12,615 nt of DNA from Candidatus Iainarchaeum sp. (lineage in GTDB: Archaea > Iainarchaeota > Iainarchaeia > Iainarchaeales > 0-14-0-20-30-16): the NCBI GenBank assembly GCA_903916665.1, contig CAIWXP010000108.1, positions 1-12,615 on the forward strand, in the 5' to 3' direction. The translations under genes were made by a program, and so were the position numbers. Under the pieces are notes generated by a model. That model worked only from the letters and a program-made list of their open reading frames with translations. It was not told the origin of the DNA and made no database searches. Positions within the stretch are counted from its first letter, which is position 1, and each line of letters begins with the position of its first letter. Below, piece by piece: positions 1 to 9,931 of the stretch.

Positions 1-707
1 AAGAAAATAAAGAAACTGCATTAGTAGACAAAGATAATAGATCTTTAGTAGCAAAAACAGATTTAACAAATAATTTGTTTTATCATATACCGTATAAGAG
101 TGATTCTAGTTACTATGGTTTGCCAGTAGGATCCTGTGCAACAGAATCAACAATCAATTATATTGGTTCAGATGAAATGTTAAATTGTGGTACTGGTGTT
201 GCTGCATTTAAAAATATTATTATTAATGATTTATCTTCAAAAAGATCATCAATAAATATAGCTTTAATAGGAACAGTAAAAGATAATACTATAACTTTAG
301 ATTATTATTCTGCACCAGGATTAGCAGTTTATGATTGTAGTGTAGATATTGAAAGTTGTTTCAAAACTTTTGGCAAAGATAATGCCTATCTATATTATAG
401 AAACAATATTTATTTTGCAAAAGATTTTACAAATATACCTAGTTTATCTAATTTGCCAAATGTGCAAGTATTATTTTTAGATACAATTTCTGGAAGTAAT
501 TCGGCTCAAGAAAAATTAGGTTATACTTATTATAAGATAGATTCTTTGCAAGCTATTATTGATAGTGTAAATAATGCAGATCTTTTGCAAGAATATGAAT
601 CTGGAAGGTATACATATATTTGGAATTTACCAAAAATATTAAAAGAAGTTGCAAGTAGCAATGATTTTCAAAATAAACTTCCAAATCCAGTAGCGGCTCG
701 TAAATAA
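1..707 (+). CDS. C-terminal part of a longer hypothetical protein, probably extracytoplasmic (5' end lies outside the window)
   Basis: The reading frame is open from base 3 (ENKETALVDKDNRSLVAKTDLTNN...), so the TTG at 75 in the ORF track is probably internal. Stop TAA at 705-707. This part has no TM segment. It is N/S/T/Y-rich with four Cys (SCATES, LNCGTG, YDCSVD, ESCFK). No family recognised. Confidence 0.6.
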   Translation, partial: ENKETALVDKDNRSLVAKTDLTNNLFYHIPYKSDSSYYGLPVGSCATESTINYIGSDEMLNCGTGVAAFKNIIINDLSSKRSSINIALIGTVKDNTITLDYYSAPGLAVYDCSVDIESCFKTFGKDNAYLYYRNNIYFAKDFTNIPSLSNLPNVQVLFLDTISGSNSAQEKLGYTYYKIDSLQAIIDSVNNADLLQEYESGRYTYIWNLPKILKEVASSNDFQNKLPNPVAARK

Positions 708-761: not shown

Positions 762-767
762 ACCGAA

Positions 768-782
768 ATCTATATATATACA
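768..782 (+). promoter_or_regulatory. TATA-box-like element for the membrane-protein operon
   Basis: The (TA)5 run at 771-780 is centred about 24 nt upstream of ATG 799. That spacing fits an archaeal TATA box driving a leaderless or near-leaderless transcript. No SD-like motif lies before ATG 799. Confidence 0.45.
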
Positions 783-798
783 AAAGTATTAATCTTTT

Positions 799-1272
799 AT
801 GATTACTATGCAGGGTTTTGTATTATTATTTTCATTTTTAGAAATGTTCTCTGATATGGGGTTTATTATAAAACTATTTCTTTTAGTTGCTATTTTAGGA
901 TTTTTAAATCAACACATTGAAAATAAAATATTAAAAGTAATTGTTGCTTTGTTTATGGGCTACGTAATGTTAATTGTAAATTGGGCTACTTTTGGAACTA
1001 TGTTTGTAATTTATTCTATGCTAGGTATGGGAATATCAAGTATGTTTGTTGATTATTTCTTCATGAACCAAGGACATTCTGGGGAAGAATTACAAACTGC
1101 AGGTAAAAATCTAAATAATGCACAAAGTGAACATTATAATAAATCTCAAGGTTTACCAGCAGATTATGGTTTAGCAGAAGAAAATCAAATGGAACAACAA
1201 TTAGAACAAATGAGAGATCAACGTCAACAAAACATAAGTCAACAACAACCTCAAAAGAAAGGTTGGTTTTAA
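799..1272 (+). CDS. Small polytopic membrane protein P1 (157 aa) with a Q/E/N-rich C-terminal tail; hypothetical
   Basis: ORF with about 3-4 hydrophobic helices (FVLLFSFLEMF.., LFLLVAILGFL, ILKVIVALFMGYVMLIV, FGTMFVIYSMLGMGISSMFV). A low-complexity tail of about 60 aa follows (..EENQMEQQLEQMRDQRQQNISQQQPQKKGWF). Alternative start ATG 808. Confidence 0.7.
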   Translation: MITMQGFVLLFSFLEMFSDMGFIIKLFLLVAILGFLNQHIENKILKVIVALFMGYVMLIVNWATFGTMFVIYSMLGMGISSMFVDYFFMNQGHSGEELQTAGKNLNNAQSEHYNKSQGLPADYGLAEENQMEQQLEQMRDQRQQNISQQQPQKKGWF

Positions 1273-1284
1273 AGGTAGATAATT

Positions 1285-1659
1285 ATGAAATATATGAATG
1301 CACGCGGATTGGCAATAATAGGAGTAATTGGCGCAGCATTTCTATGTTTTATTATATTGCCGTGGATATTATTCTACATAAATGGTATGAGTAAAGTTTT
1401 ATTTCAGGTAATTATGGCCTTTACAATTCTAGGTTATGTGAAGCAAATGGGCCTGGATGGGGCACTAATGTGGATAGTTTCGGGAATTTTGATTTACTTC
1501 ATTGTATGGAAGTATATATATTTATTTTCTAGTCTATATTTGATAATGATGTTAATGGGTTTTGGTTTTACTTCTGCAATAATGTGGGGTTCCAATGCTG
1601 TTAAAGGTAAATTGGACATTGCATCTATGAATAGACAGGCTGCAAAATTGAGAAAATGA
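1285..1659 (+). CDS. Small polytopic membrane protein P2 (124 aa, about 4 TM); hypothetical
   Basis: AGGT at 1273-1276 lies 8 nt before the ATG, and the gap to P1 is 12 nt. Four hydrophobic segments and a basic C-terminus (KGKLDIASMNRQAAKLRK). Confidence 0.7.
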   Translation: MKYMNARGLAIIGVIGAAFLCFIILPWILFYINGMSKVLFQVIMAFTILGYVKQMGLDGALMWIVSGILIYFIVWKYIYLFSSLYLIMMLMGFGFTSAIMWGSNAVKGKLDIASMNRQAAKLRK

Positions 1660-1901
1660 TTTTTATGATAATGCTAGATATAGTTTTAGGAACAATAAAA
1701 GGGGATGTTTGGCTAGGTTTACTTTTGTTTTTGGGTATAACCGCCTATGCTTGGGCCAAAGGTAAGCTAGGAGACGCGTCTATTGCCGTTGCCTTTGTTT
1801 TGATCATGGGTTCAATATTTATCAACCACACTGAGTTTGTGTGGATAATAATGGGTGCCTATCTCTTCAAAGAGTATGGAAAACAGATATTTAAGGTATA
1901 G
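1656..1901 (+). CDS. Small polytopic membrane protein P3 (81 aa, about 3 TM); hypothetical
   Basis: ATGA start/stop overlap with P2 at 1656-1659, indicating translational coupling. Three hydrophobic segments. Alternative start ATG 1665. Confidence 0.65.
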   Translation: MIFMIMLDIVLGTIKGDVWLGLLLFLGITAYAWAKGKLGDASIAVAFVLIMGSIFINHTEFVWIIMGAYLFKEYGKQIFKV

Positions 1902-1936
1902 CCTAATTAGAGCTCATAAAATGAGAGCTTATTAGG
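1902..1936 (+). other. Imperfect stem-loop in the P3-P4 spacer
   Basis: CCTAATTAGAGCTCAT / AAA / ATGAGAGCTTATTAGG. 13 of 16 arm positions pair: 1902-1907 with 1931-1936, 1909-1910 with 1928-1929, and 1913-1917 with 1921-1925. It starts directly after the P3 stop. Confidence 0.5.
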
Positions 1937-1960
1937 TCATAGATATGAGAAATATAAGGT

Positions 1961-2305
1961 ATGATCATGGATTTGTTTACTTTTGCCCTATCTTTGCTTG
2001 TGATGTACATAGCTTTAACCTATGGCTATTTTTGGCTGGTTATTGTGATAGGTGCAATCCTAATTTTTATGGGTAAATCAAAGCATATACTTATAATAGT
2101 TATTGCTCTAATTATTGTATTGTTTCTACTACGTGGAACAGCCTATGAGAGCTATAGCATATATGCAGTAGCCCTAGGAATCGGAGCATTTTTATTAATG
2201 AATAAGGAAGATACAGGTGACACTTACAACCCAGAAGATCAATATGGAGACTTATTGAAGGGATTGGGTGGTGGCGGTGGTGCCGGTGGTCTTGGTGGTA
2301 TGTAA
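1961..2305 (+). CDS. Small polytopic membrane protein P4 (114 aa, about 4 TM) with an acidic then Gly-rich tail; hypothetical
   Basis: AAGGT at 1956-1960 precedes two candidate starts, ATG 1961 and ATG 1967; the second has the better SD spacing. Hydrophobic core, then tail NKEDTGDTYNPEDQYGDLLKGLGGGGGAGGLGGM. Confidence 0.7.
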   Translation: MIMDLFTFALSLLVMYIALTYGYFWLVIVIGAILIFMGKSKHILIIVIALIIVLFLLRGTAYESYSIYAVALGIGAFLLMNKEDTGDTYNPEDQYGDLLKGLGGGGGAGGLGGM

Positions 2306-2647
2306 ATGAGATATTTATTCTTGATAATTGGTTTATTGTTAACTTTAGGGGCAATGGTAAACTCAAACATATTTTATTTAGGTTTAATAGTAATGGCTTT
2401 ATCTTTTGTATTCTCTAATAATTCTGAGAAAAGCATAAGTAAAATAACAGAAAGACGTTCATTATTAGATAGATTAGACAAAGTTAAGCTAGAAGTACCA
2501 GATAACGCTATTTCAACCATTGTTGAAGATGCAATGGCAGTTACTGCAAAGATGGCAAAGGGTGCTAAAGCAGATGTTAGTACAAAGTCTATAGTTGCTG
2601 GAACATTGGGTGTAATGGACGGCGTTGGAACTGTTTTTAAAAAATAA
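2306..2647 (+). CDS. Membrane-hairpin protein P5 (113 aa, 2 TM plus a soluble domain of about 75 aa); hypothetical
   Basis: The ATG abuts the P4 stop (TAAATG at 2303-2308). Two N-terminal hydrophobic helices are followed by an A/K/V/D-rich, probably helical, region. Confidence 0.7.
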   Translation: MRYLFLIIGLLLTLGAMVNSNIFYLGLIVMALSFVFSNNSEKSISKITERRSLLDRLDKVKLEVPDNAISTIVEDAMAVTAKMAKGAKADVSTKSIVAGTLGVMDGVGTVFKK

Positions 2648-2671
2648 ATCAATCTAATTCAATTATAAATC

Positions 2672-2685
2672 TTTTTACAGTTTTT
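2672..2685 (+). terminator. Two T5 tracts downstream of the membrane-protein operon
   Basis: CTTTTTACAGTTTTTA, with T5 at 2672-2676 and at 2681-2685, about 25 nt after the P5 stop. This is an archaeal oligo-T terminator candidate. Confidence 0.35.
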
Positions 2686-2827
2686 AATATAGGCACAGAT
2701 TACTCTGTTAAATTGTAAAATATATATTGTTAAACTATAATGAGCAAATTGTGATTGAATGACCCAGTTGTTAATTTTTTCAAAAAATCAAAAATTAAAA
2801 CAGTTTCAATTAATGATGTGATAATTA

Positions 2828-3943
2828 ATGACTACTAATTTTGACTATGAATATGGAAATGCTTTGGCACAATACGAGAATGCAAAAACCGTTGAAGAAA
2901 AAATTAAAGCTTTAGAGTTAATGCAGAGTACGGCCCCAAGTCACAAGGGTGCTGAGAATTTAAGATCGGATATTGTTGGTAAATTAGCAAAAATGAAAAA
3001 CAAACTGGAAAAGAGCAAAGCTGTTAAAGGAGGATCCAAAGGTTTAAGATTCTCAAGAGATGGTTCGGCGACCATTGTTTTAATAGGTATTCCAAACAGT
3101 GGTAAAAGTACTCTATTGTCAAAAATAACCAATGCCATGCCAAAGATAAGTGACTATGCATTTACTACAAAAATTCCAGAAATTGGTATTATGGAATATA
3201 AAGGAACAAAGATTCAAATTGTTGAGTTACCCGCAATAGTTGAAGGTGCAAATAAAGGTAGAGCACGAGGAAAGGAAGTTTTGGGTTTAGTTCGTAATGG
3301 TGATTTAGTAATTTGTTGTTTATTAGGTTCAAGAGAAACTGCAGAATATTCTTTAGATGTTTTGAAAGAAGAATTAGAGTTAAGTAATATTATTGTTAAT
3401 AAAAAGCGAGTTAATTTGTCAGTAAATAAAAGTACCACTCAAGGTATTGAAATTGTGGGAGAAACAAACGTAATTGATGGTGCAGAAAATCTTTTTGATA
3501 TTTTAAAGGAAAGATATGCGCATATTATTGTTAGAGTGGATGAGAAAGCAAGTATTGCAGATATTTTAAATGCAATGGACTATACAAAAAGTTATAAAAA
3601 AGTAATTGCCATTTGGTTAGATGGTAAAGAAGCATTTACCTATAAAACAATAAAAGTTCAACCCTATAATAGCACAGAAGAAATAAAAAAATTAATCTAT
3701 GACAATTTAGATTTAATTATTGTTCACACTAGAAAGCCCGGGGAGAAAGATATTGATAATGTACCCGTTGCTCTACGTTCAGGATCTACAATAAAAGATC
3801 TTTGTAGTATGTTGCATAAAGATTTTATTGAGAAATTTAAATTTGCTAGAATATGGGGTTCAGGGAAATATCCTGGTCAACAGGTATCTTTGGATTATCC
3901 TTTAATTTCAAATGATATTGTTGAGTTTCATATTAGGGCTTAA
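2828..3943 (+). CDS. DRG/Rbg1-family (Obg-like) P-loop NTPase with a C-terminal TGS domain
   Basis: Walker A/G1 GIPNSGKST, G2-like YAFTT, and block KIQIVELPAIVEGANKGRARGKEVL, which aligns by eye to yeast Rbg1 [25 protein letters not shown]. The C-terminal block IIVHTRKPGEKDIDNVPVALRSGSTIKDLCSMLHKDF..IWGS is TGS-like. GTGAT SD at 2818-2822 lies 5 nt before the ATG. Confidence 0.85.
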   Translation: MTTNFDYEYGNALAQYENAKTVEEKIKALELMQSTAPSHKGAENLRSDIVGKLAKMKNKLEKSKAVKGGSKGLRFSRDGSATIVLIGIPNSGKSTLLSKITNAMPKISDYAFTTKIPEIGIMEYKGTKIQIVELPAIVEGANKGRARGKEVLGLVRNGDLVICCLLGSRETAEYSLDVLKEELELSNIIVNKKRVNLSVNKSTTQGIEIVGETNVIDGAENLFDILKERYAHIIVRVDEKASIADILNAMDYTKSYKKVIAIWLDGKEAFTYKTIKVQPYNSTEEIKKLIYDNLDLIIVHTRKPGEKDIDNVPVALRSGSTIKDLCSMLHKDFIEKFKFARIWGSGKYPGQQVSLDYPLISNDIVEFHIRA

Positions 3944-3961
3944 ATAACAAGGGATTATTTT

Positions 3962-4423
3962 ATGATAACATTAAAGAAAATATTTTGGTTAATAATTTTT
4001 TTATTAATTATTTTAGAGCTATGTCTATCTGTTTATTTAATTTATGAATCTCAAACTTTAGGTAATCTATGTGTTGCAGGTCAAGGTTGTGATTTAGTTC
4101 AAAGTTCAAGCTATGCCTATTTGTTTGGAATCAAATTAATGTACATTGCAATTTTTGCATTTTTATTTTTAATGACTTTATTTATTTTTAGTGAACCTTT
4201 ATTTGTATTGGCTAGCATTATTGGTGCTGCCTTTGCATTTTATTTTATTTCTTTACAGCTATTTGTTTTAAAACAAATTTGTAGTACCTGTGTAGTTATT
4301 GATTCAACAATGATACTAATTGCAATTTTAGGAATAATTGGTTATTTTACTTTGAAGAAAAAGATAATGAATAAGAGAAAGATAATTAATAAAAAGAAGA
4401 AATCAAAAAAACAAAAGAATTAG
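3962..4423 (+). CDS. VKOR-family (vitamin K epoxide reductase-like) membrane thiol oxidoreductase, stand-alone
   Basis: Four hydrophobic helices. A loop Cys pair is followed by Ser (LCVAGQGCDLVQSSSYAYLFGI). CSTC lies at the N-terminal end of the last helix (nt 4280-4291). Lys-rich C-terminal tail. Confidence 0.7.
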   Translation: MITLKKIFWLIIFLLIILELCLSVYLIYESQTLGNLCVAGQGCDLVQSSSYAYLFGIKLMYIAIFAFLFLMTLFIFSEPLFVLASIIGAAFAFYFISLQLFVLKQICSTCVVIDSTMILIAILGIIGYFTLKKKIMNKRKIINKKKKSKKQKN

Positions 4424-4426
4424 TTT

Positions 4427-5101
4427 TTATCTTATTTTAGTTAGTTCTTCTTTTATTTCTGTATTACTAACAGTAAATAATTTATCTGCATAGCTTACAA
4501 ATAGTCCTGTTTCTAATATTCCTGGAGTAGTATTTAATTTAAAATTTAAATCATCAAAATCTAATATTTTTGTATTTAATTTTAAATCAATTATATAATT
4601 AGTTTCTAAAGTTTTAACTCTTTGTCCTAGTTTAGTTCTTATTTTTGCATCTCCAAAAGAATATAATTCTTTTTCAATTAAATGTGTTCCAAATCTAGAA
4701 ACTTCTAAAGGAATTGCAGGAATTTCAGAATTAAATAATTCATTGTAGACAAAAACATAGTTTTCTTTTGCGTATTTTGCAACCATTTTATCTCTTATTA
4801 AACTTTGCGTACTAGTTTTAATATAATTAAACATTGAATCTGCATAGTCTGCAAAATCAATGCACAGATCAATTTTATGATGCAATGGGACTAATTCAAT
4901 ATTGAATTCATGGGCCAGGTGCGCAATATCTATTGATGTTGGAACTAACTTCAATTTTAAATCATTTATTATATTATGAATTGCTAATTCTCTTAAAATT
5001 TGTAATGCTGTTGATGATGTGCCTAGAGCAAGTGTACTATTGGGCTTTATTGTTTGTTTTAAAAATTTTTGAATAAAATAATTACTTAACATACATTTCA
5101 C
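4427..5101 (-). CDS. rpiA: Ribose-5-phosphate isomerase A-like protein (divergent)
   Basis: Colinear by eye with E. coli RpiA. LALGTSSTA matches VGVGTGSTA; LVPTS matches the Ser-rich strand; IDLCIDFADYAD matches IYVDGADE; YIKTSTQSLIRDK matches MIKGGGAALTREK; IPLEV matches LPVEV; TPGILETGLF matches IPGVVTVGLF. The start is either GTG 5101 or ATG 5092. Confidence 0.7.
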   Translation of the reverse strand: MKCMLSNYFIQKFLKQTIKPNSTLALGTSSTALQILRELAIHNIINDLKLKLVPTSIDIAHLAHEFNIELVPLHHKIDLCIDFADYADSMFNYIKTSTQSLIRDKMVAKYAKENYVFVYNELFNSEIPAIPLEVSRFGTHLIEKELYSFGDAKIRTKLGQRVKTLETNYIIDLKLNTKILDFDDLNFKLNTTPGILETGLFVSYADKLFTVSNTEIKEELTKIR

Positions 5102-5156
5102 TTTACTAGAATTACATATATTATAACTATCAAGTATATAAAATATATACTTCCTA

Positions 5157-6473
5157 TTAAAATTTCACATCTACTTCTGGATCATTTTCTTTTTCTTTTT
5201 TTTCTTTAGCTTCCTTTATTTTTTTAATAATTGTTGTAATTATAATAACTAATATTATTCCCGCAACCACAATAATCGCAACTAGCATTACTGGATTGGT
5301 TTGTTGATCCGTTGAGCTACTATCAGTAGAATTGTTGCTATTAGTACTTGTAACTATGTCTTTCTTGCCATCTTTATAAATTATCAATGCCATATCTTTC
5401 AATGGTTTAATTTGTCTTTTTGCGCTATCATATTCTTTTTTACCAAGATCAGAATACATCATGGTATAGGCATCATTGAATGCAACTGTTTTATTATAAT
5501 CTTTCCAGGTATCTTTACTGTTAATAATTAAATCAAAAAAAGATTTTGGGTTTGTTTGTTTTGTTGTTTTCTCTAATTCTTTATCATAGCCCAAATATAA
5601 TTCTAAAAAAGACATTCTTTTTAATCGTGCATCCCAAGAAGTTAATAGTGGTTCTATATTTGTATAGTTTTCAGAATATTCTTTTGCACTATTTAATGTG
5701 TTTAAATTAGTGGATAAATTAGAAATATATTCTGGCACATTTTGAAATTCTTGTGGTAAAACTAATAGATTATTTCCAATTGATGTTTTCATATCCAAAG
5801 GAATATTAGCATCTACTAAAATTATTTTTACATTCATTATTAATCCTTGCAATTTAGAAAGTTTATTTAAAAAATTATTTGTATCTGTTTGCAAATTATC
5901 TGTGCTTGTTTTTATTGATATATAATTTTCATAGGCCTGGGTTTGTAGGTTTCTATCTAATAGTATAGTATTGTTTGTAATATCTATTGATAGTTCACCA
6001 ATTTCTTTTGTTGTTAATTGAACGTTTTGTATACCCAATAAAACATTTTCTTGTGAAGCATCTAAATTTTCAATTTCTTTTTTAACTAACTCTAAATTAT
6101 AATTAAAATTAGTTATTGCATTTGGTAAGGTGTTAAAAAAATAAGCAATCTTTTGGTTATCATATTTTTGTGTTGATTTTGAAAAGAAAAAATAGGTTTC
6201 GGCAACTGGTTTTATTTCTTCTGTTGTGACCAATTGTAAATAGTTTTTATCTTCCACTACAAATAAATCTTTATCATTTGTTTCTAATAGCCAATATTTT
6301 TCTTTTTGATATATTATGGGATAAAAATTATCAATTTTTTCTGAGCCATCCAAAGGATTTATTAAATACATGTCACTAACATTTTTTTGGATAGTATCCT
6401 GATCCAATGCAAATAAAAAATGACTAAATAGTATTAATGCAAATAAAAATATAGTTGCATTAAGATATTTCAT
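5157..6473 (-). CDS. Secreted, C-terminally membrane-anchored surface protein; hypothetical, probably glycosylated
   Basis: Signal-like N-terminus MKYLNATIFLFALILFSHFLFA|LDQD. No Cys. Many N-x-S/T sequons. S/T/N-rich stalk TSTNSNNSTDSSSTDQQTN, a single TM PVMLVAIIVVAGIILVIIITTII and a K/E-rich tail. The ORF track starts at GTG 6482; ATG 6473 is the more likely start. Confidence 0.75.
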   Translation of the reverse strand: MKYLNATIFLFALILFSHFLFALDQDTIQKNVSDMYLINPLDGSEKIDNFYPIIYQKEKYWLLETNDKDLFVVEDKNYLQLVTTEEIKPVAETYFFFSKSTQKYDNQKIAYFFNTLPNAITNFNYNLELVKKEIENLDASQENVLLGIQNVQLTTKEIGELSIDITNNTILLDRNLQTQAYENYISIKTSTDNLQTDTNNFLNKLSKLQGLIMNVKIILVDANIPLDMKTSIGNNLLVLPQEFQNVPEYISNLSTNLNTLNSAKEYSENYTNIEPLLTSWDARLKRMSFLELYLGYDKELEKTTKQTNPKSFFDLIINSKDTWKDYNKTVAFNDAYTMMYSDLGKKEYDSAKRQIKPLKDMALIIYKDGKKDIVTSTNSNNSTDSSSTDQQTNPVMLVAIIVVAGIILVIIITTIIKKIKEAKEKKEKENDPEVDVKF

Positions 6474-6482
6474 AAATAACAC

Positions 6483-6920
6483 TCAATCTTTTTTCATTAA
6501 ATCTTTAATTTGTTTATAGGTTACAAATTCTAAAGGATTTATTGCATCAACTAAATATTTTATTTCTTGAAATTCTTTTCTACTTACAAAATCGCCCTTT
6601 ATGCTATCCATATTTTGATTTAATTGATCAACTTCTTGTTTTACTCCTTGGATTTTATTATATAATTCTGTAATTTGTGCTTTAATTGCATCCAATTCTT
6701 CTACACTAGCGCCACCGGTAGTTTGCACATTACTTTGAGAATTAATTTTATCATCTAATTTTTTTAGTTTATCATTTAATACTAAAATATTTTGACTTAA
6801 AATTTTTTCGTTTCTAACTAGATAACCTATTTTTTGACTTAATAACATTACCGTTGCATTTATTGCTTTAACATTGGTCCCAACACCACTTTGTTGAGCT
6901 TGAGGAACTTGATCAACCAT
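6483..6920 (-). CDS. Soluble coiled-coil protein (145 aa); hypothetical
   Basis: No TM segment or signal peptide. Heptad-like stretches (KILSQNILVLNDKLKKLDDKIN; ELDAIKAQITELYNKIQGVKQEVDQLNQNMDSIKGD). GTGAT SD (plus-strand ATCAC at 6924-6928) lies 3 nt before the ATG. Its stop is 9 nt from the ATG of the next gene. Confidence 0.7.
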   Translation of the reverse strand: MVDQVPQAQQSGVGTNVKAINATVMLLSQKIGYLVRNEKILSQNILVLNDKLKKLDDKINSQSNVQTTGGASVEELDAIKAQITELYNKIQGVKQEVDQLNQNMDSIKGDFVSRKEFQEIKYLVDAINPLEFVTYKQIKDLMKKD

Positions 6921-6974
6921 AAAATCACTTTAAAATCATTTATTGTGTAATAAATATATGTTATACATTAAGAT

Positions 6975-6987
6975 ACTATATATAAAT
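6975..6987 (+). promoter_or_regulatory. TATA-like element upstream of taw1, in a divergent promoter region
   Basis: ACTATATATAAAT is centred about 26 nt upstream of ATG 7008, and no SD motif lies between them. This is consistent with a leaderless transcript. The same 87-nt spacer also holds ATATATTTA on the minus strand for the 6920 gene. Confidence 0.4.
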
Positions 6988-7007
6988 CATAGCAATATAA
7001 AAATATT

Positions 7008-8018
7008 ATGCATTCTAAACTAAGATTATCTCCGCAAATGAAAATTGATTTACAAAACAAACATTATGGGTTAGCTGGTAATCATAGTGCTGTTCAAATA
7101 TGTGAATGGACAAAGAAAAGTTTGCGAAATGAAGGAGAATGCTATAAAAATACTTTTTATGGTGTTGAAACGCATAATTGTGCGCAAGTGTCTCCAAATG
7201 TATTGTGGTGTGATCAAAATTGTATATTCTGTTGGAGACCCGCAGAAAACATGTTAAAAGAATCAATTAAAGAACAGGTAGACGATCCTAAAAAAACAAT
7301 TGACGAATTAGTTAAAGCCAGATATAAATTGTTGACTGGTTTCAAAGGCCTAGAAAAAACAAATCAAAGTAAATTTAAAGCATCAATGAATAGCTTTCCT
7401 AGTCATTGGGCAATATCTTTAAGTGGGGAGCCTACACTTTACCCTAAATTAGCAGAATTCATAAAAGAATTAAAAAAACAAAAAGCAAAAACAATTTTTT
7501 TAGTAAGCAATGGCCAAAATCCTTTGGTAATAAAGACTTTGGAGAAAAAGAAAGCTTTGCCTACACAATTATACATATCTCTTGATGCTTGGGATTCTCA
7601 GAGTTATAATAGAATTAATAAGGGAATTAGAAAAGACGCTTGGGAAAGATTATTAAAAACTTTGGTGTTATTAAATAAGCTACCAACAAGAACAGTGGTT
7701 AGATTAACTGTTATAAAAGGTTTAAACGATTCTGAAGAAGCAATAAAAGGATTTGCAAAGTTAATAGAGTCTAGTCAACCTGATTTTTTGGAAATCAAAT
7801 CCTACATGCATTTAGGCTATAGTAGAGAGAGATTAGCAAGAGAAAATATGCCTAGTCATGAAGATATAAAAGATTTTGGAAAAAAATTAGAAAAATATTG
7901 TTCAAGTATAAAATATGAAGATGAAAACTCAGGATCAAGAATTATTTTATATAAAAATACAGGAAAAAATAGAAAAAAGAAAGTGCCGAGTAGATGGATT
8001 ATAAAACCCAAGAAATAA
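7008..8018 (+). CDS. taw1: tRNA 4-demethylwyosine synthase (radical SAM, TYW1/Taw1)
   Basis: Radical-SAM CxxxCxxC motif in LWCDQNCIFCWRP. The upstream C-x12-C-x12-C triad (QICEW..GECYK..THNCAQ) matches the auxiliary-cluster cysteines of archaeal Taw1. N-terminal L..KHYGLAGNHSAVQIC.WTKKSL and the FYG block are typical of the family. Confidence 0.88.
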   Translation: MHSKLRLSPQMKIDLQNKHYGLAGNHSAVQICEWTKKSLRNEGECYKNTFYGVETHNCAQVSPNVLWCDQNCIFCWRPAENMLKESIKEQVDDPKKTIDELVKARYKLLTGFKGLEKTNQSKFKASMNSFPSHWAISLSGEPTLYPKLAEFIKELKKQKAKTIFLVSNGQNPLVIKTLEKKKALPTQLYISLDAWDSQSYNRINKGIRKDAWERLLKTLVLLNKLPTRTVVRLTVIKGLNDSEEAIKGFAKLIESSQPDFLEIKSYMHLGYSRERLARENMPSHEDIKDFGKKLEKYCSSIKYEDENSGSRIILYKNTGKNRKKKVPSRWIIKPKK

Positions 8019-8062
8019 AATAAATAAATTGGAATAAATTATAATTGTTTTTAGGTGATAAT

Positions 8063-8716
8063 TTGGATCAAATAAAAATGGAAAGAATTTTAGGTTTGGC
8101 AATTAATAAATATCCTCAGGAATATAAAGATTATATTAAAGAAGAGGGAAAAGTAGTATTAGAATTATTATCAAAGGATAAAGATATTAAATTATTAGAT
8201 GTGGGTTGCGGCTCAAACATGAATATTGAAAATATTGCAAAAATTACAAAAGAGTTTGTGGGCATAGATTTAGATGATTCTATGGTCTATGAAGCTAAGG
8301 ATAAATTAGAAGGAAATAAACGTGCAAAAATAGTAAAATTAGATGTTCATAAATTATCTGAAAGTTATAAAAAAAATTATTTTAATACTTCAATTGCAAT
8401 GTGGAATGCTTTAGGATCAATGGGTGATGAGGTACATTGGTTAGGCGAAGTTGCAAAGGTAACAAAAGGAAGAATTATTTTAAGTTTAGTTGAAAAAGGT
8501 CATTTAGAAATTAGACAAAAATATTACGAAGATTTGAATTCTACCTATTTGGTAATGAATGATGGTAAAGAAACTATATTTTCGCCCATTTGGGGCTATT
8601 CAAGAGCTTTTTCAAAGGAAGATATTGAAGCCTATGCTAAAGCTTGTAAATTAAAAGTAGAAAAATTTATTCCTTTGGCAAAAATAGGATTCTTAGCCAT
8701 TTTAGTTAAAAAGTAA
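8063..8716 (+). CDS. Class I SAM-dependent methyltransferase, substrate unknown
   Basis: Motif I LLDVGCGSN, then the acidic end of beta-2 (FVGIDLDDSM) and post-I IAMWNALGSMGD. GGTGA at 8054-8058 lies 4 nt before the in-frame TTG 8063. Alternative starts are TTG 8045 (ORF track) and ATG 8078. Confidence 0.7.
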   Translation: MDQIKMERILGLAINKYPQEYKDYIKEEGKVVLELLSKDKDIKLLDVGCGSNMNIENIAKITKEFVGIDLDDSMVYEAKDKLEGNKRAKIVKLDVHKLSESYKKNYFNTSIAMWNALGSMGDEVHWLGEVAKVTKGRIILSLVEKGHLEIRQKYYEDLNSTYLVMNDGKETIFSPIWGYSRAFSKEDIEAYAKACKLKVEKFIPLAKIGFLAILVKK

Positions 8717-8743
8717 ATATTTTGCTAAAAAATCCAACCTACC

Positions 8744-8751
8744 TTTATAAA
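8744..8751 (+). promoter_or_regulatory. Candidate TATA box for the ribosomal protein operon
   Basis: TTTATAAA is a close match to the archaeal TATA consensus. It would place the TSS near 8775 and give a leader of about 140 nt. An alternative weaker element, TGTATAAAAAA, lies at 8833-8843. Confidence 0.35.
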
Positions 8752-8780
8752 TCTTTCTTTAGCTATATTAATAATACATT

Positions 8781-8800
8781 ATTTGAGTTGGGACTCAGAT
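8781..8800 (+). other. Stem-loop at the predicted 5' end of the L3 operon leader
   Basis: ATTTGAGT / TGGG / ACTCAGAT forms an 8-bp stem, including one G-U pair, with a tetraloop. Confidence 0.45.
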
Positions 8801-8917
8801 AATCATTCGATTTATTGATTTCAAGTAAATTTTGTATAAAAAATTCTTAAAAAGCTCATTGATTTGAGTTTAGTTTGCAATTTGCAACATTTATGTTAAA
8901 TATAAAAGGTGTAATTA

Positions 8918-9931
8918 ATGGGTAAAACAAATAAACCACGATGCGGATCAATGGCCTACTATCCTAGAAAGAGAGCCATGAGTCAAATACCAAAATTTAG
9001 AAGCATAGTATTACCAAAAGACTTAAAAGATGTTAAAATATTGAATTTTTACGGTTATAAAGTTGGAATGCTCCATGTTATGGGACAAAACAAACATAAA
9101 GGATCTCCTTTTAATAATCAGAAAGTAAGTATTCCTGCAACTGTTGTTGAAGTACCTGGAATTACTGTTTTAGGTATGCGATTTTATAATGTTACCAATG
9201 CTACAAAGAGTGCTTTGAAAGATTTTGTTTTTACATCAAAAGTAAGCAAGCACATGTCAAAAAGATTAACTGGTGTTAATAGAGCTAAAGAGAAAGGAGA
9301 TTTAATGAAGACTGCTTTAGATTTCTTTGAAGAAAATAAAATAAAAGTTAAAGAAATTGCTTTAATTGCTCAAACTCATCCAGAAAAAACAACTATTGGG
9401 AAGAAATGTCCCGAAGTTATTGAATTATATTTATCAGGAAAACCTGAAGAACAATTGGAATTCGCTAAATCAAAAATAGGTCAAGATCTAAATATTACTG
9501 ATTTTGCCTTAGAAAACACATTTGTTGATTTAAAAGGAGTAACAGTTGGTAAAGGTTTCCAAGGTGTTATTAAAAGATTTGGTGTTAAAAGATTACATCA
9601 TAAATCTGAAAAAGGTGTAAGAGGAGTAGGATCAATTGGTCCATGGACGCCTCCTACAGTTATGAACACAGTTCCAAGACCTGGTCAAATGGGTTATCAC
9701 AGTAGAGTACAAGTAAATCAAAAAATATTGAAATACATTGACGAATGTGATAAAATAAATCCAAAAAGTGGTTGGGAAGGCTATGGAGTAATTAGAAATA
9801 AAGCAGTTATTGTTGCAGGTTCTATTCCTGGTCATGTTAAAAGATTGGTTGCTTTCAGATTTGCTGAGAGAATACCTAAAGATATTAAAACTGATATTTC
9901 AGAAATTACAAACATTGTTTTAGCAAATTAA
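8918..9931 (+). CDS. rpl3: 50S ribosomal protein uL3 (archaeal L3)
   Basis: N-terminus MGKTNKPRCGSMAYYPRKRA is the archaeal/eukaryotic uL3 signature. The block GKGFQGVIKRFG..GPWTP fits, as does the 337-aa length. AAGGTG at 8906-8911 lies 6 nt before the ATG. It is first in the conserved order L3-L4-L23-L2-S19-L22. Confidence 0.95.
   Translation: MGKTNKPRCGSMAYYPRKRAMSQIPKFRSIVLPKDLKDVKILNFYGYKVGMLHVMGQNKHKGSPFNNQKVSIPATVVEVPGITVLGMRFYNVTNATKSALKDFVFTSKVSKHMSKRLTGVNRAKEKGDLMKTALDFFEENKIKVKEIALIAQTHPEKTTIGKKCPEVIELYLSGKPEEQLEFAKSKIGQDLNITDFALENTFVDLKGVTVGKGFQGVIKRFGVKRLHHKSEKGVRGVGSIGPWTPPTVMNTVPRPGQMGYHSRVQVNQKILKYIDECDKINPKSGWEGYGVIRNKAVIVAGSIPGHVKRLVAFRFAERIPKDIKTDISEITNIVLAN

Follow-up and report, generated by a model that had tools for sequence, protein, structure and literature searches.

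What do five adjoining genes for small membrane proteins of no recognisable family do in an archaeon with a reduced genome? The question is raised by a 12,615-nucleotide (nt) stretch of DNA from Candidatus Iainarchaeum sp. (contig CAIWXP010000108.1 of assembly GCA_903916665.1; hereafter the window), in which an earlier note, made by reading the letters, had proposed an autonomous five-gene operon, P1 to P5, for a candidate novel membrane complex. The genomes of DPANN archaea are tiny, these organisms presumably rely on contact with other cells, and to our knowledge hardly anything has been learnt about the assembly of their surface structures or their retention in the membrane. Our preferred explanation, to which we give a probability of about 40%, is that the block encodes a membrane-embedded partner complex, predicted from the sequence, for the N-terminal signal/anchor region of giant secreted proteins whose genes lie beside it. 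The host is a low-GC DPANN archaeon, which agrees with the reduced-genome archaeon suspected before: the window encodes archaeal L3/L4/L23/L2/S19, a DRG/Obg-type GTPase, VKOR, RpiA and a Taw1-type radical-SAM enzyme, and the nearest genome found is a 'Ca. Diapherotrites' metagenome-assembled genome (MAG), its GTPase being 74% identical to that of the window.

Five open reading frames (ORFs) can be read on the + strand with 157, 124, 81, 114 and 113 amino acids (aa), namely P1 at 799-1272, P2 at 1285-1659, P3 at 1656-1901, P4 at 1967-2305 from its refined start (112 aa; readable from 1961, 114 aa) and P5 at 2306-2647. P1 and P2 are in the same frame in the window, with a gap of 12 nt and an AGGT, a putative Shine-Dalgarno (SD)-like element, at 1273-1276 (+), 8 nt 5' of the P2 ATG at 1285; the P2 stop and the P3 start overlap in ATGA at 1656-1659; P3 and P4 are 59 nt apart as first called; and the P4 stop abuts the P5 start in TAAATG at 2303-2308. 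The ORFs, these junctions, and the (TA)5 element and T5 tracts described below all stand in the sequence as the earlier note had given them. Related loci were gathered in two independent ways, from the conserved GTPase as anchor and from P2 and P4 homologues, and the order P1-P2-P3-P4-P5, whose conservation the note had left to be checked, is kept in about 10 distinct related lineages (the near clade: L006, L014, L016, L018, L019, L020, L027, L028, L029 and L031/32). A metagenome scan with P4 gave six loci, all near-clade, and the exact proteins are encoded again on short contigs from stratified-lake metagenomes (ENA BUCK21 assemblies; JGI 3300009502). In orthologue alignments the mean column identity is 55-74%, with invariant motifs particular to each protein, and the ratio of nonsynonymous to synonymous substitution rates (dN/dS) against four relatives is 0.08-0.36 for the block genes, in the same range as for the adjacent GTPase (0.09-0.29). 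We regard all five ORFs as real genes under selection, in a real operon.

P1 and P2 adjoin in every locus, including the distant ones (L021-L026), where P2 is about 25-33% identical to the P2 of the window. At L025, one of the distant loci, P2 is followed by a P3-like gene (profile E 7.5e-12) and this by a P4-like start (MDTFNFIL...), the contig end cutting P4, while P5 has so far been seen in the window's clade only. Because P1 and P2 alone are found throughout, sequence comparison resolves the block into an ancient core pair, P1 and P2, and accessory members, P3, P4 and P5, present in some clades, rather than one indivisible complex.

What accompanies this core pair is a gene for a very large surface protein. 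In 11 of the 11 loci with enough upstream sequence (the window, L014, L018, L020, L028 and L021-L026), one to three genes for large secreted proteins lie just 5' of the block on the same strand. As read, the lengths of these giants range from 898 to 2,424 aa, and genes that continue beyond the end of their locus reach 2,612 aa. The downstream neighbours differ wholly by clade, being CofD, the GTPase, VKOR and RpiA in some loci, TrmB, an aminoacyl-tRNA synthetase, PALP and Lon in others, and different genes again elsewhere; since the giants persist while these neighbours change, it is the link to the giants that is conserved, not general synteny. Pfam recognises CarboxypepD_reg, Big_1 and SpaA-type beta-sandwich domains directly after the N-terminal region of the giants, and has no match for either of their terminal regions. 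At the N-terminus, five P1-adjacent giants have the invariant motif ED.(W/Y)Y..LD...P.Y..(I/V)D.ID...PS and one transmembrane (TM) helix, the conserved region before the helix being about 40 residues long. At the C-terminus, a domain of about 220 residues, with the motif ...(I/L)(D/K)(S/T)I(E/Q)...C...(F/W)WN, is common to both giants of every distant locus and to two near-clade giants. In one distant locus (L021; CP064981, Ca. Iainarchaeum), this C-terminal domain is read at 8614-9315 in another frame, overlapping the called 2,231-aa gene at 2231-8926, which suggests a frameshift near the 3' end of that giant, be it a sequencing error, a pseudogene or programmed.

The gene upstream of P1 in the window had been taken for a secreted Cys-containing protein, and this part of the earlier description has to be replaced. 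ORF 3-707 (+), open from base 3 and cut by the window start, matches the giant C-terminal profile with residues 19-227 (profile positions 29-219; E 8e-6 in a 2,839-ORF database) and has, about 56 residues from its end, the motif IDSLQAIIDSV...YTYIWN, located by regular expression. It also matches a 1,400-aa protein of L018 in BLASTP (E 1e-4) and nothing in Pfam. The profile match over almost its full length, together with the motif, identifies this ORF as the tail of a giant, with the ~220-aa C-terminal domain, rather than a small secreted protein.

Between the giant and P1 lies what appears to be the boundary of two transcripts. A terminator-like hairpin at 706-735 is followed by a T-rich tract at 736-761 (706-761, +; -10.1 kcal/mol, z -3.1 against shuffled sequences) and probably ends the giant-protein transcript. 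Next to it, at 762-780 (+), 19-37 nt 5' of the ATG at 799, stand a word resembling the B recognition element (BRE), ACCGAAAT, and a TATA box (TATATATATA), and the (TA)5 at 771-780 is part of this ACCGAAAT-N-TAT(T)TATATA footprint. In the general form ACCGAAA(T/C)-N-TAT(T)TATATA the footprint is found 5' of P1 in eight loci (the window, L006, L014, L016, L019, L027, L029 and L031), about 20-35 nt from the start codon, and occurs once in the window against 0.09 expected. We take this to be the archaeal BRE-plus-TATA layout, and the footprint at 762-780 is the block's own predicted promoter, whose spacing from the ATG suggests a leaderless or short-leader mRNA. Footprint, terminator-like hairpin and T-rich tract together support the operon's description as autonomous. 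Downstream, two T5 tracts at 2672-2676 and 2681-2685 (+) follow the P5 stop and are a candidate archaeal oligo-T terminator; RNA folding found no stable hairpin at 2672-2685. At L014 4860-4940 the footprint stands 79 nt 5' of the called P1 start, and the intervening sequence encodes the N-terminal helix of other P1 orthologues, so that the public P1 call of this locus (100 aa) is probably too short.

The architecture of the five proteins confines where they could meet a partner. Hydropathy, orthologue-wide charge analysis and, for P2 only, an AlphaFold2 model agree on the number of TM helices and bear out the counts made by eye. By the positive-inside rule, P1-P4 are four-helix proteins, N-in/C-in (three to four helices in P3), and P5 has an N-terminal two-helix membrane hairpin, N-in, followed by a charged cytoplasmic region of about 77 aa with the motif V.D.M.VTA...KG.K. 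According to the charge analysis, the outward loops of P1-P5 have just 2-6 residues, and all tails and the P5 soluble region are cytoplasmic. P2 is modelled as a compact four-helix membrane bundle with a basic cytoplasmic tail (mean predicted local distance difference test score, pLDDT, 84.4; predicted TM-score, pTM, 0.62) and has the motifs GYV(K/R)QMGL(D/E)GALMW and LMGFG.TS..MWG. P1 has the invariant cytoplasmic loop NQHIENK; P3 has the loop W.K..L.D and the invariant C-terminus FKV; and P4 has an invariant N-terminus (MDLFTFA), the loop FMGK and, before a Gly-rich stretch, an invariant tail of acidic and aromatic character on the cytoplasmic side, DTY(N/S)PEDQYGDLLKGLGG. In or near the membrane, polar or charged residues are conserved in P1 (H39, W62, D85), P2 (Q41, K76/Y77) and P3 (D17, D40). 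The cytoplasmic tail of P1 evolves fast and is of low complexity, nearly always with a short basic patch at its end: Gln, Glu and Asn abound there in the window, Met, Gly and Gln in L006, L019 and L020, and His, Glu and Gly in L021 and L023, the Met-rich tails apparently resembling metal-binding Met motifs.

The suggestion that the whole set was built from diverged paralogues held for the core pair only. With hhalign, 11 P1-family and 28 P2-family sequences align at 97.7% probability and E 1.8e-12 over 76 columns covering the last three helices, and, on a small local ORF database in which other membrane ORFs do no better than about E 0.2, a diverse P2 profile picks up all P1 orthologues with E 1e-6 to 1e-9. 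P1 and P2 are, by these profile comparisons, paralogues, a relationship visible only with diverse alignments, as pairwise BLAST and shallow profiles gave nothing convincing. P3 aligns to P1 and P2 in an equivalent helix-loop-helix register, but at 13% and 0.9% probability, which is not significant, and its status as a further paralogue is unproven; P4 and P5 were rejected as paralogues of the others, since profile comparisons show no relation. Likewise, the recurring layout of a TM helix, a short Lys/Gly-rich loop and another TM helix corresponds to the cytoplasmic TM2-TM3 loop of P1, P2 and P3, while the P4 version is only the ordinary positive-inside pattern. A natural P1-P2 fusion seemed to be at hand in a 241-aa protein, P0082 (L024 1909-2634), and was rejected as a gene-calling artefact in which one in-frame TGA is read as Trp: the P1-like and P2-like genes of L024 are in the same frame with one TGA between them, and the locus under table 11 does not give P0082, which reflects a wrong genetic code in the source gene calling or, less likely, real read-through.

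None of the libraries compared (Pfam, NCBIfam, PHROGs, PADLOC and PDB) contains a recognisable family for these proteins, in keeping with the first impression. Against Pfam-A and NCBIfam the best scores of P1-P5 were 12-15 bits, the cut-offs being 27-28, and none was reached; divergent orthologues (L014, L019) fared no better, and neither did 67 members of the P2 family and 11 of the P1 family when each was scanned singly. Family profiles of P1-P5 had no match among 177,635 distinct PDB sequences, and the P2 model had no Foldseek relative in PDB and in BFVD a best E of 3.2 (TM-score 0.31). The best PHROGs value, E 0.049 for P3 and a phage holin family, is noise, and the only PADLOC candidate, P4 against PDC-M50A (E 0.007, 14.9 bits over 33 hydrophobic residues), is not a match. 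An exhaustive HMMER search with the P2 profile among 1.84 billion representatives returned 31 clusters at E <= 1e-3, all of them stand-alone proteins of 68-154 aa without fusions. A broader P2 search collected 68 proteins, whose named organisms are only Ca. Iainarchaeum, Ca. Diapherotrites or 'archaeon' and whose product names are 'hypothetical', 'uncharacterized' or 'uncharacterized membrane protein'.

Two domains of unknown function came closest. DUF7649 was found below threshold in 12 of 67 P2 members at E <= 1 (best E 0.0015; the members inspected reached 10-14 bits, the cut-off being 27), with no match for the P2 of the window itself, and DUF4118 in 5 of 11 P1 members (best E 0.006; 12.2 bits, E 0.16, for the window P1 against a cut-off of 28.4). 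DUF4118 is normally the membrane domain of a sensor kinase, and no kinase or other fused domain was found here. Both domains align to helices 2-4 of some members and are helical membrane domains of similar size; as neither has a known function, even true homology would yield none. SPC12 gave a single match in 1 of 11 P1 members (E 0.014), at noise level. The small subunits of Mrp/Mnh/Mbh antiporters and the small membrane subunits of NADH dehydrogenase gave no match at E <= 1, and no large antiporter-like or hydrogenase genes were present in any locus examined. Pilins and archaellins with class III signal peptides have a short basic N-terminus, a cleavage motif, a hydrophobic helix and a beta-rich extracellular domain, and such a layout was not seen on inspection of P1-P5, all of which consist of several helices or a hairpin and have their C-terminal regions in the cytoplasm; nor was there a pilin or archaellin match in Pfam or NCBIfam. 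We found no description of the module in the literature searched on Iainarchaeota or DPANN giant proteins, small membrane proteins or DUF7649. On these comparisons the module lies outside every family and system considered and is new by exclusion only; it is also lineage-specific, restricted to Iainarchaeota, and lineage-specific small membrane proteins are common in archaea (PMC9258230).

How might such proteins serve the giants? P1 and P2 always adjoin and share the N-in/C-in topology, which is the usual signature of a heteromer. In the explanation that we prefer, they would assemble side by side in the same orientation, with P3, P4 and P5 as accessory subunits, and the complex would engage the conserved acidic N-terminal cytoplasmic motif of the giants and their single hydrophobic helix. 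With outer loops of 2-6 residues, any contact with a giant would have to be made within the membrane or on the cytoplasmic face, where the N-terminal region of the giants lies. Such an engagement may hold or organise these very long proteins or assist their insertion, and the cytoplasmic tails could offer docking sites and perhaps couple the giants to the cell interior.

Several observations weigh against this explanation. The complex, its contact with the giants and the effect of that contact are all inferred from genomic context. The match of the window ORF to the C-terminal profile is modest (23 bits) and falls to E 0.043 with a profile built from the distant clades only, and the N-terminal end of this upstream gene falls outside the window. 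The upstream proteins of L014, L020 and L028 are without the C-terminal motif, some near-clade ones are without the N-terminal motif, and in the near clade an AAA_14 ATPase, a GH114 protein or toxin-antitoxin pairs can separate the giant from the block. P3-P5 are missing beside P1-P2 in one large clade, and were not found within 10 kb in L021-L023 and L026. The terminator-like hairpin, T-tract and separate promoter imply that the giant and P1 are probably not co-transcribed, and the conserved adjacency could in part be inherited gene order rather than function. A tethered AlphaFold2 model of P1 and P2, for which P0082 stood in as a natural heterodimer, has both halves helical and fairly confident, with a pTM of 0.48, and its P1 half had no alignment depth.

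Among known systems, the closest parallels are conceptual ones. The SlaA/SlaB pair of Sulfolobales offers a two-component anchoring of a surface layer, in which a very large Ig-rich outer protein is likewise encoded beside a membrane-embedded partner that probably ties it to the membrane. However, SlaB crosses the membrane once and has a long extracellular stalk, whereas P1-P5 expose nothing but their very short loops and the giants here have a hydrophobic N-terminal helix of their own. Anchoring through co-expressed accessory proteins is a general theme of archaeal S-layers (bioRxiv 10.1101/2024.05.28.596244). The giants as the S-layer lattice protein itself are unsupported: the same survey proposes for Iainarchaeota a different protein, of 1,039 aa (bioRxiv 10.1101/2024.05.28.596244). 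A further parallel is found in predicted archaeal complexes in which Ig-like, S-layer-type proteins are co-encoded with small, poorly conserved membrane proteins and are read as surface complexes (PMC5898192, PMC6393860). The arCOG01314 and arCOG01994 systems (Makarova, Galperin & Koonin 2015) resemble the present module in combining large secreted Ig-like proteins with small membrane proteins, and those systems and this module are purely computational predictions. Identity with either was rejected because hallmark components are missing. The hallmarks of the arCOG01314 system are a DUF4350 anchor, a MoxR-type AAA+ ATPase, a vWA secreted protein and pfam07760 proteins (PMC5898192), and DUF4350, MoxR ATPase, vWA and pfam07760 were not found in the window or in the called genes of the 14 loci with precomputed Pfam matches. 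SpoIIM-like arCOG01994 and a SalXY ABC transporter are not in any locus either, and the small proteins here are unrelated and confined to Iainarchaeota. AliA and AliB (arCOG02177/02178) are a paralogous pair of archaeal seven-TM enzymes that lipidate surface lipoproteins, with a conserved Arg (or His) pair and with lipobox Cys substrates (PMC12462473, PMC5898192); going by this family description we rejected them, as P1 and P2 have four TM helices and cores of about 110 aa, and the N-terminal regions of the giants have no Cys after the hydrophobic helix.

With these systems set aside, P1 and P2, joined in some clades by P3-P5, could amount to an unprecedented membrane docking or export platform for giant Ig-repeat surface proteins with a conserved, extended N-terminal signal/anchor region, a bolder claim that we hold to be somewhat unlikely. 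Such a platform would be an Iainarchaeota-specific surface apparatus, possibly for attachment to cells or substrates, its cytoplasmic tails connecting it with the interior of the cell, and would share no origin with the secretion, anchoring or adhesion systems described so far.

The linkage to the giants would be equally expected if the module were a dedicated aid to their export or processing, which we judge unlikely. The N-terminal region of the giants would then be an extended signal peptide, and P1/P2, with or without P3-P5, would target, hold or release the giants together with the Sec translocon. In several giants the helix is succeeded by small residues like those at signal-peptidase sites (ANA↓V, TTA↓V and TSA↓V, read by eye), and a conserved region of some 40 residues is unusually long for an ordinary signal peptide. 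Nevertheless, none of the loci encodes an ATPase, a paralogue of SecY or SecA, or a peptidase, cleavage of the giants is unproven, and nothing in P1-P5 resembles SecE, SecG, YidC or signal-peptidase subunits. The accessory Sec systems of Gram-positive bacteria, which serve giant serine-rich adhesins with extended signal peptides and include the small membrane proteins Asp4 and Asp5, would be the model for such an aid in function, not in ancestry. The likeness, of giant adhesin-like substrates with a long conserved N-terminal region beside small membrane proteins, is an analogy of logic only: here there is no SecA2 or SecY2, no glycosyltransferase and no sequence similarity, and the domain of life is another.

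The paralogy of P1 and P2 also invites a reading in which the giants play no part, the pair being an independent small ion or solute channel or transporter, in the form of a P1/P2 heterodimer, and its adjacency to giants an inherited order without functional meaning. Paired SMR proteins (EbrAB) and Fluc/CrcB pairs are indeed encoded by adjacent paralogous genes for small four-helix membrane proteins, and P1 and P2 resemble these bacterial transporters and channels in adjoining, in having four TM helices and about 110 aa each, and in the heterodimer expected of them. The conserved polar and charged residues in or near the membrane of P1, P2 and P3, as well as the block's own predicted promoter and the terminator-like element that separates it from the giant gene, would suit this reading too. 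It is nonetheless quite improbable in our estimation. No similarity to a transporter or channel was found in Pfam, NCBIfam or PDB sequences, nor a Foldseek fold match in PDB, and Multi_Drug_Res and CRCB gave no match even at E 1; P2 has no conserved acidic residue, or membrane-embedded Glu, in helix 1 as SMR proteins do; and P1 and P2 are oriented alike, unlike the antiparallel partners of the well-known dual-topology pairs. Furthermore, the adjacency to giants persists at the low P2 identity of the distant loci while all other neighbours change, and confinement to a single phylum is unusual for a general transport function.

More doubtful still is a housekeeping origin, by which P1-P5 would be small subunits, too far diverged for sequence methods to recognise, of a common machine such as an Mrp/Mbh-type antiporter, translocon or oligosaccharyltransferase accessories, or ATP synthase. 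Fast-evolving membrane proteins can escape detection, as archaeal YidC illustrates (PMC6393860), and the block has as neighbours the DRG GTPase, VKOR, RpiA, Taw1 and the L3-L4-L23-L2-S19 operon. In the distant clades, however, this context is lost and no neighbours but the giants persist, and no locus has partner catalytic subunits nearby. In addition, the five family profiles are without a match in PDB sequences, the confident P2 model is without a Foldseek match in PDB, and the exhaustive search left a P2 family of just 31 clusters and no intermediates that would connect it to a larger one. Finally, cargo of a virus, provirus or mobile element (holin-like), or spurious ORFs in AT-rich DNA, an explanation to which the sub-threshold matches of P3 to a phage holin family (E 0.049) and of P4 to a PADLOC candidate (E 0.007) and the toxin-antitoxin genes and AAA_14 ATPase near the block in some loci might point, is effectively refuted by purifying selection equal to that on the GTPase, by an order and position fixed in a syntenic core region across many lineages, by the absence of relatives on 2.9 million viral contigs, and by the lack, around the block, of genes such as integrase or capsid that mark a mobile element.

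The coupling of P1/P2 to giants with shared terminal regions is a specific and testable lead into the cell-surface biology of DPANN archaea, for which the conserved motifs, the predicted promoter and the confident P2 model give experimental handles. Should the link prove functional, the analysis has named the substrates of a new archaeal surface system along with its membrane partner; if it does not, there is still a phylum-restricted set of new membrane-protein families under strong selection.

Within the operon, the P3-P4 junction of the window turned out to be peculiar to one strain. The 59-nt gap and its hairpin (1901-1939; -14.9 kcal/mol, z -2.6 against shuffled sequences), counted by the earlier note among the junctions of the unit, are present in the window, and this hairpin, like the one near the upstream T-rich tract, is real, but the gap owes its length to a strain-specific insertion and is not a conserved operon feature. 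The insertion, of about 55 nt, occupies 1900-1954 (+) within the P3-P4 spacer, holds the hairpin and is flanked by an 8-nt direct repeat, TAAGGTAT, with copies at 1892-1899 and 1955-1962. It is single-copy in the window and recurs only in L001 and L002, which are identical-strain contigs, and it is not in L027, L028, L006 or L014. The repeat looks like the target-site duplication of a tiny mobile hairpin element, and the duplication restores an AAGGT 5' of P4. In relatives P4 always starts at ATGGATTTG (MDL...), 2-12 nt past the P3 stop, and because the start position is the same in all orthologues, the true P4 start of the window is most likely the ATG at 1967 (MDLFTFA..., with AAGGT 6 nt upstream), not that at 1961; the exact 114-aa version is not in the public protein collection. 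The codons of the P3 C-terminus FKV, AAGGTNTAA, carry the SD-like element for P4 in relatives. At 1890-1901 of the window the invariant P3 end ...FKV is encoded by TTTAAGGTNTAA, which contains AAGGT for P4, and the position of AAGGT inside the last P3 codons may explain the unvarying P3 C-terminus.

The flanks of the block seem to tolerate insertions, accessory genes being found around it at L006 67-990 and 3192-3816, L014 3596-4846 and L031 102-1535. The one of L014 includes an AAA_14/DUF4143 ATPase (precomputed Pfam match), and those of L006 include, as read by eye, a small HEPN-like-looking protein with an R...H motif and a pair of a short protein and a 141-aa protein that resembles an antitoxin and its PIN-like toxin. 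At L020 4215-5399 giant and block are separated by a gene for a secreted glycoside hydrolase of family GH114, and a gene whose C-terminus is near-identical to that of this GH114 gene lies directly 5' of the block at L019 1-939, which adds one more gene related to the cell surface or to polysaccharides to the surroundings.

On the downstream side, a VKOR-family membrane protein is encoded beside the GTPase at 3962-4423 (+) of the window, an arrangement that recurs in several related loci; together with the conserved Cys in the C-terminal domains of the giants, it suggests that extracytoplasmic disulfide formation may matter for these proteins. Further along, a second conserved pair without a family stands between RpiA and Taw1 in all near-clade loci, with members of 425-437 and 136-145 aa. 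In the window the pair consists of a 441-aa protein (5157-6482, -), hydrophobic in its N-terminal region and ending in a TM helix and a basic tail, and an adjoining coiled-coil protein of 145 aa (6483-6920, -), neither of which belongs to a Pfam family. Between Taw1 and the L3 operon, the window has a SAM-dependent methyltransferase (8045-8716, +; Methyltransf_31/25/11), in place of which several related loci have other small genes or a SPASM radical-SAM gene.

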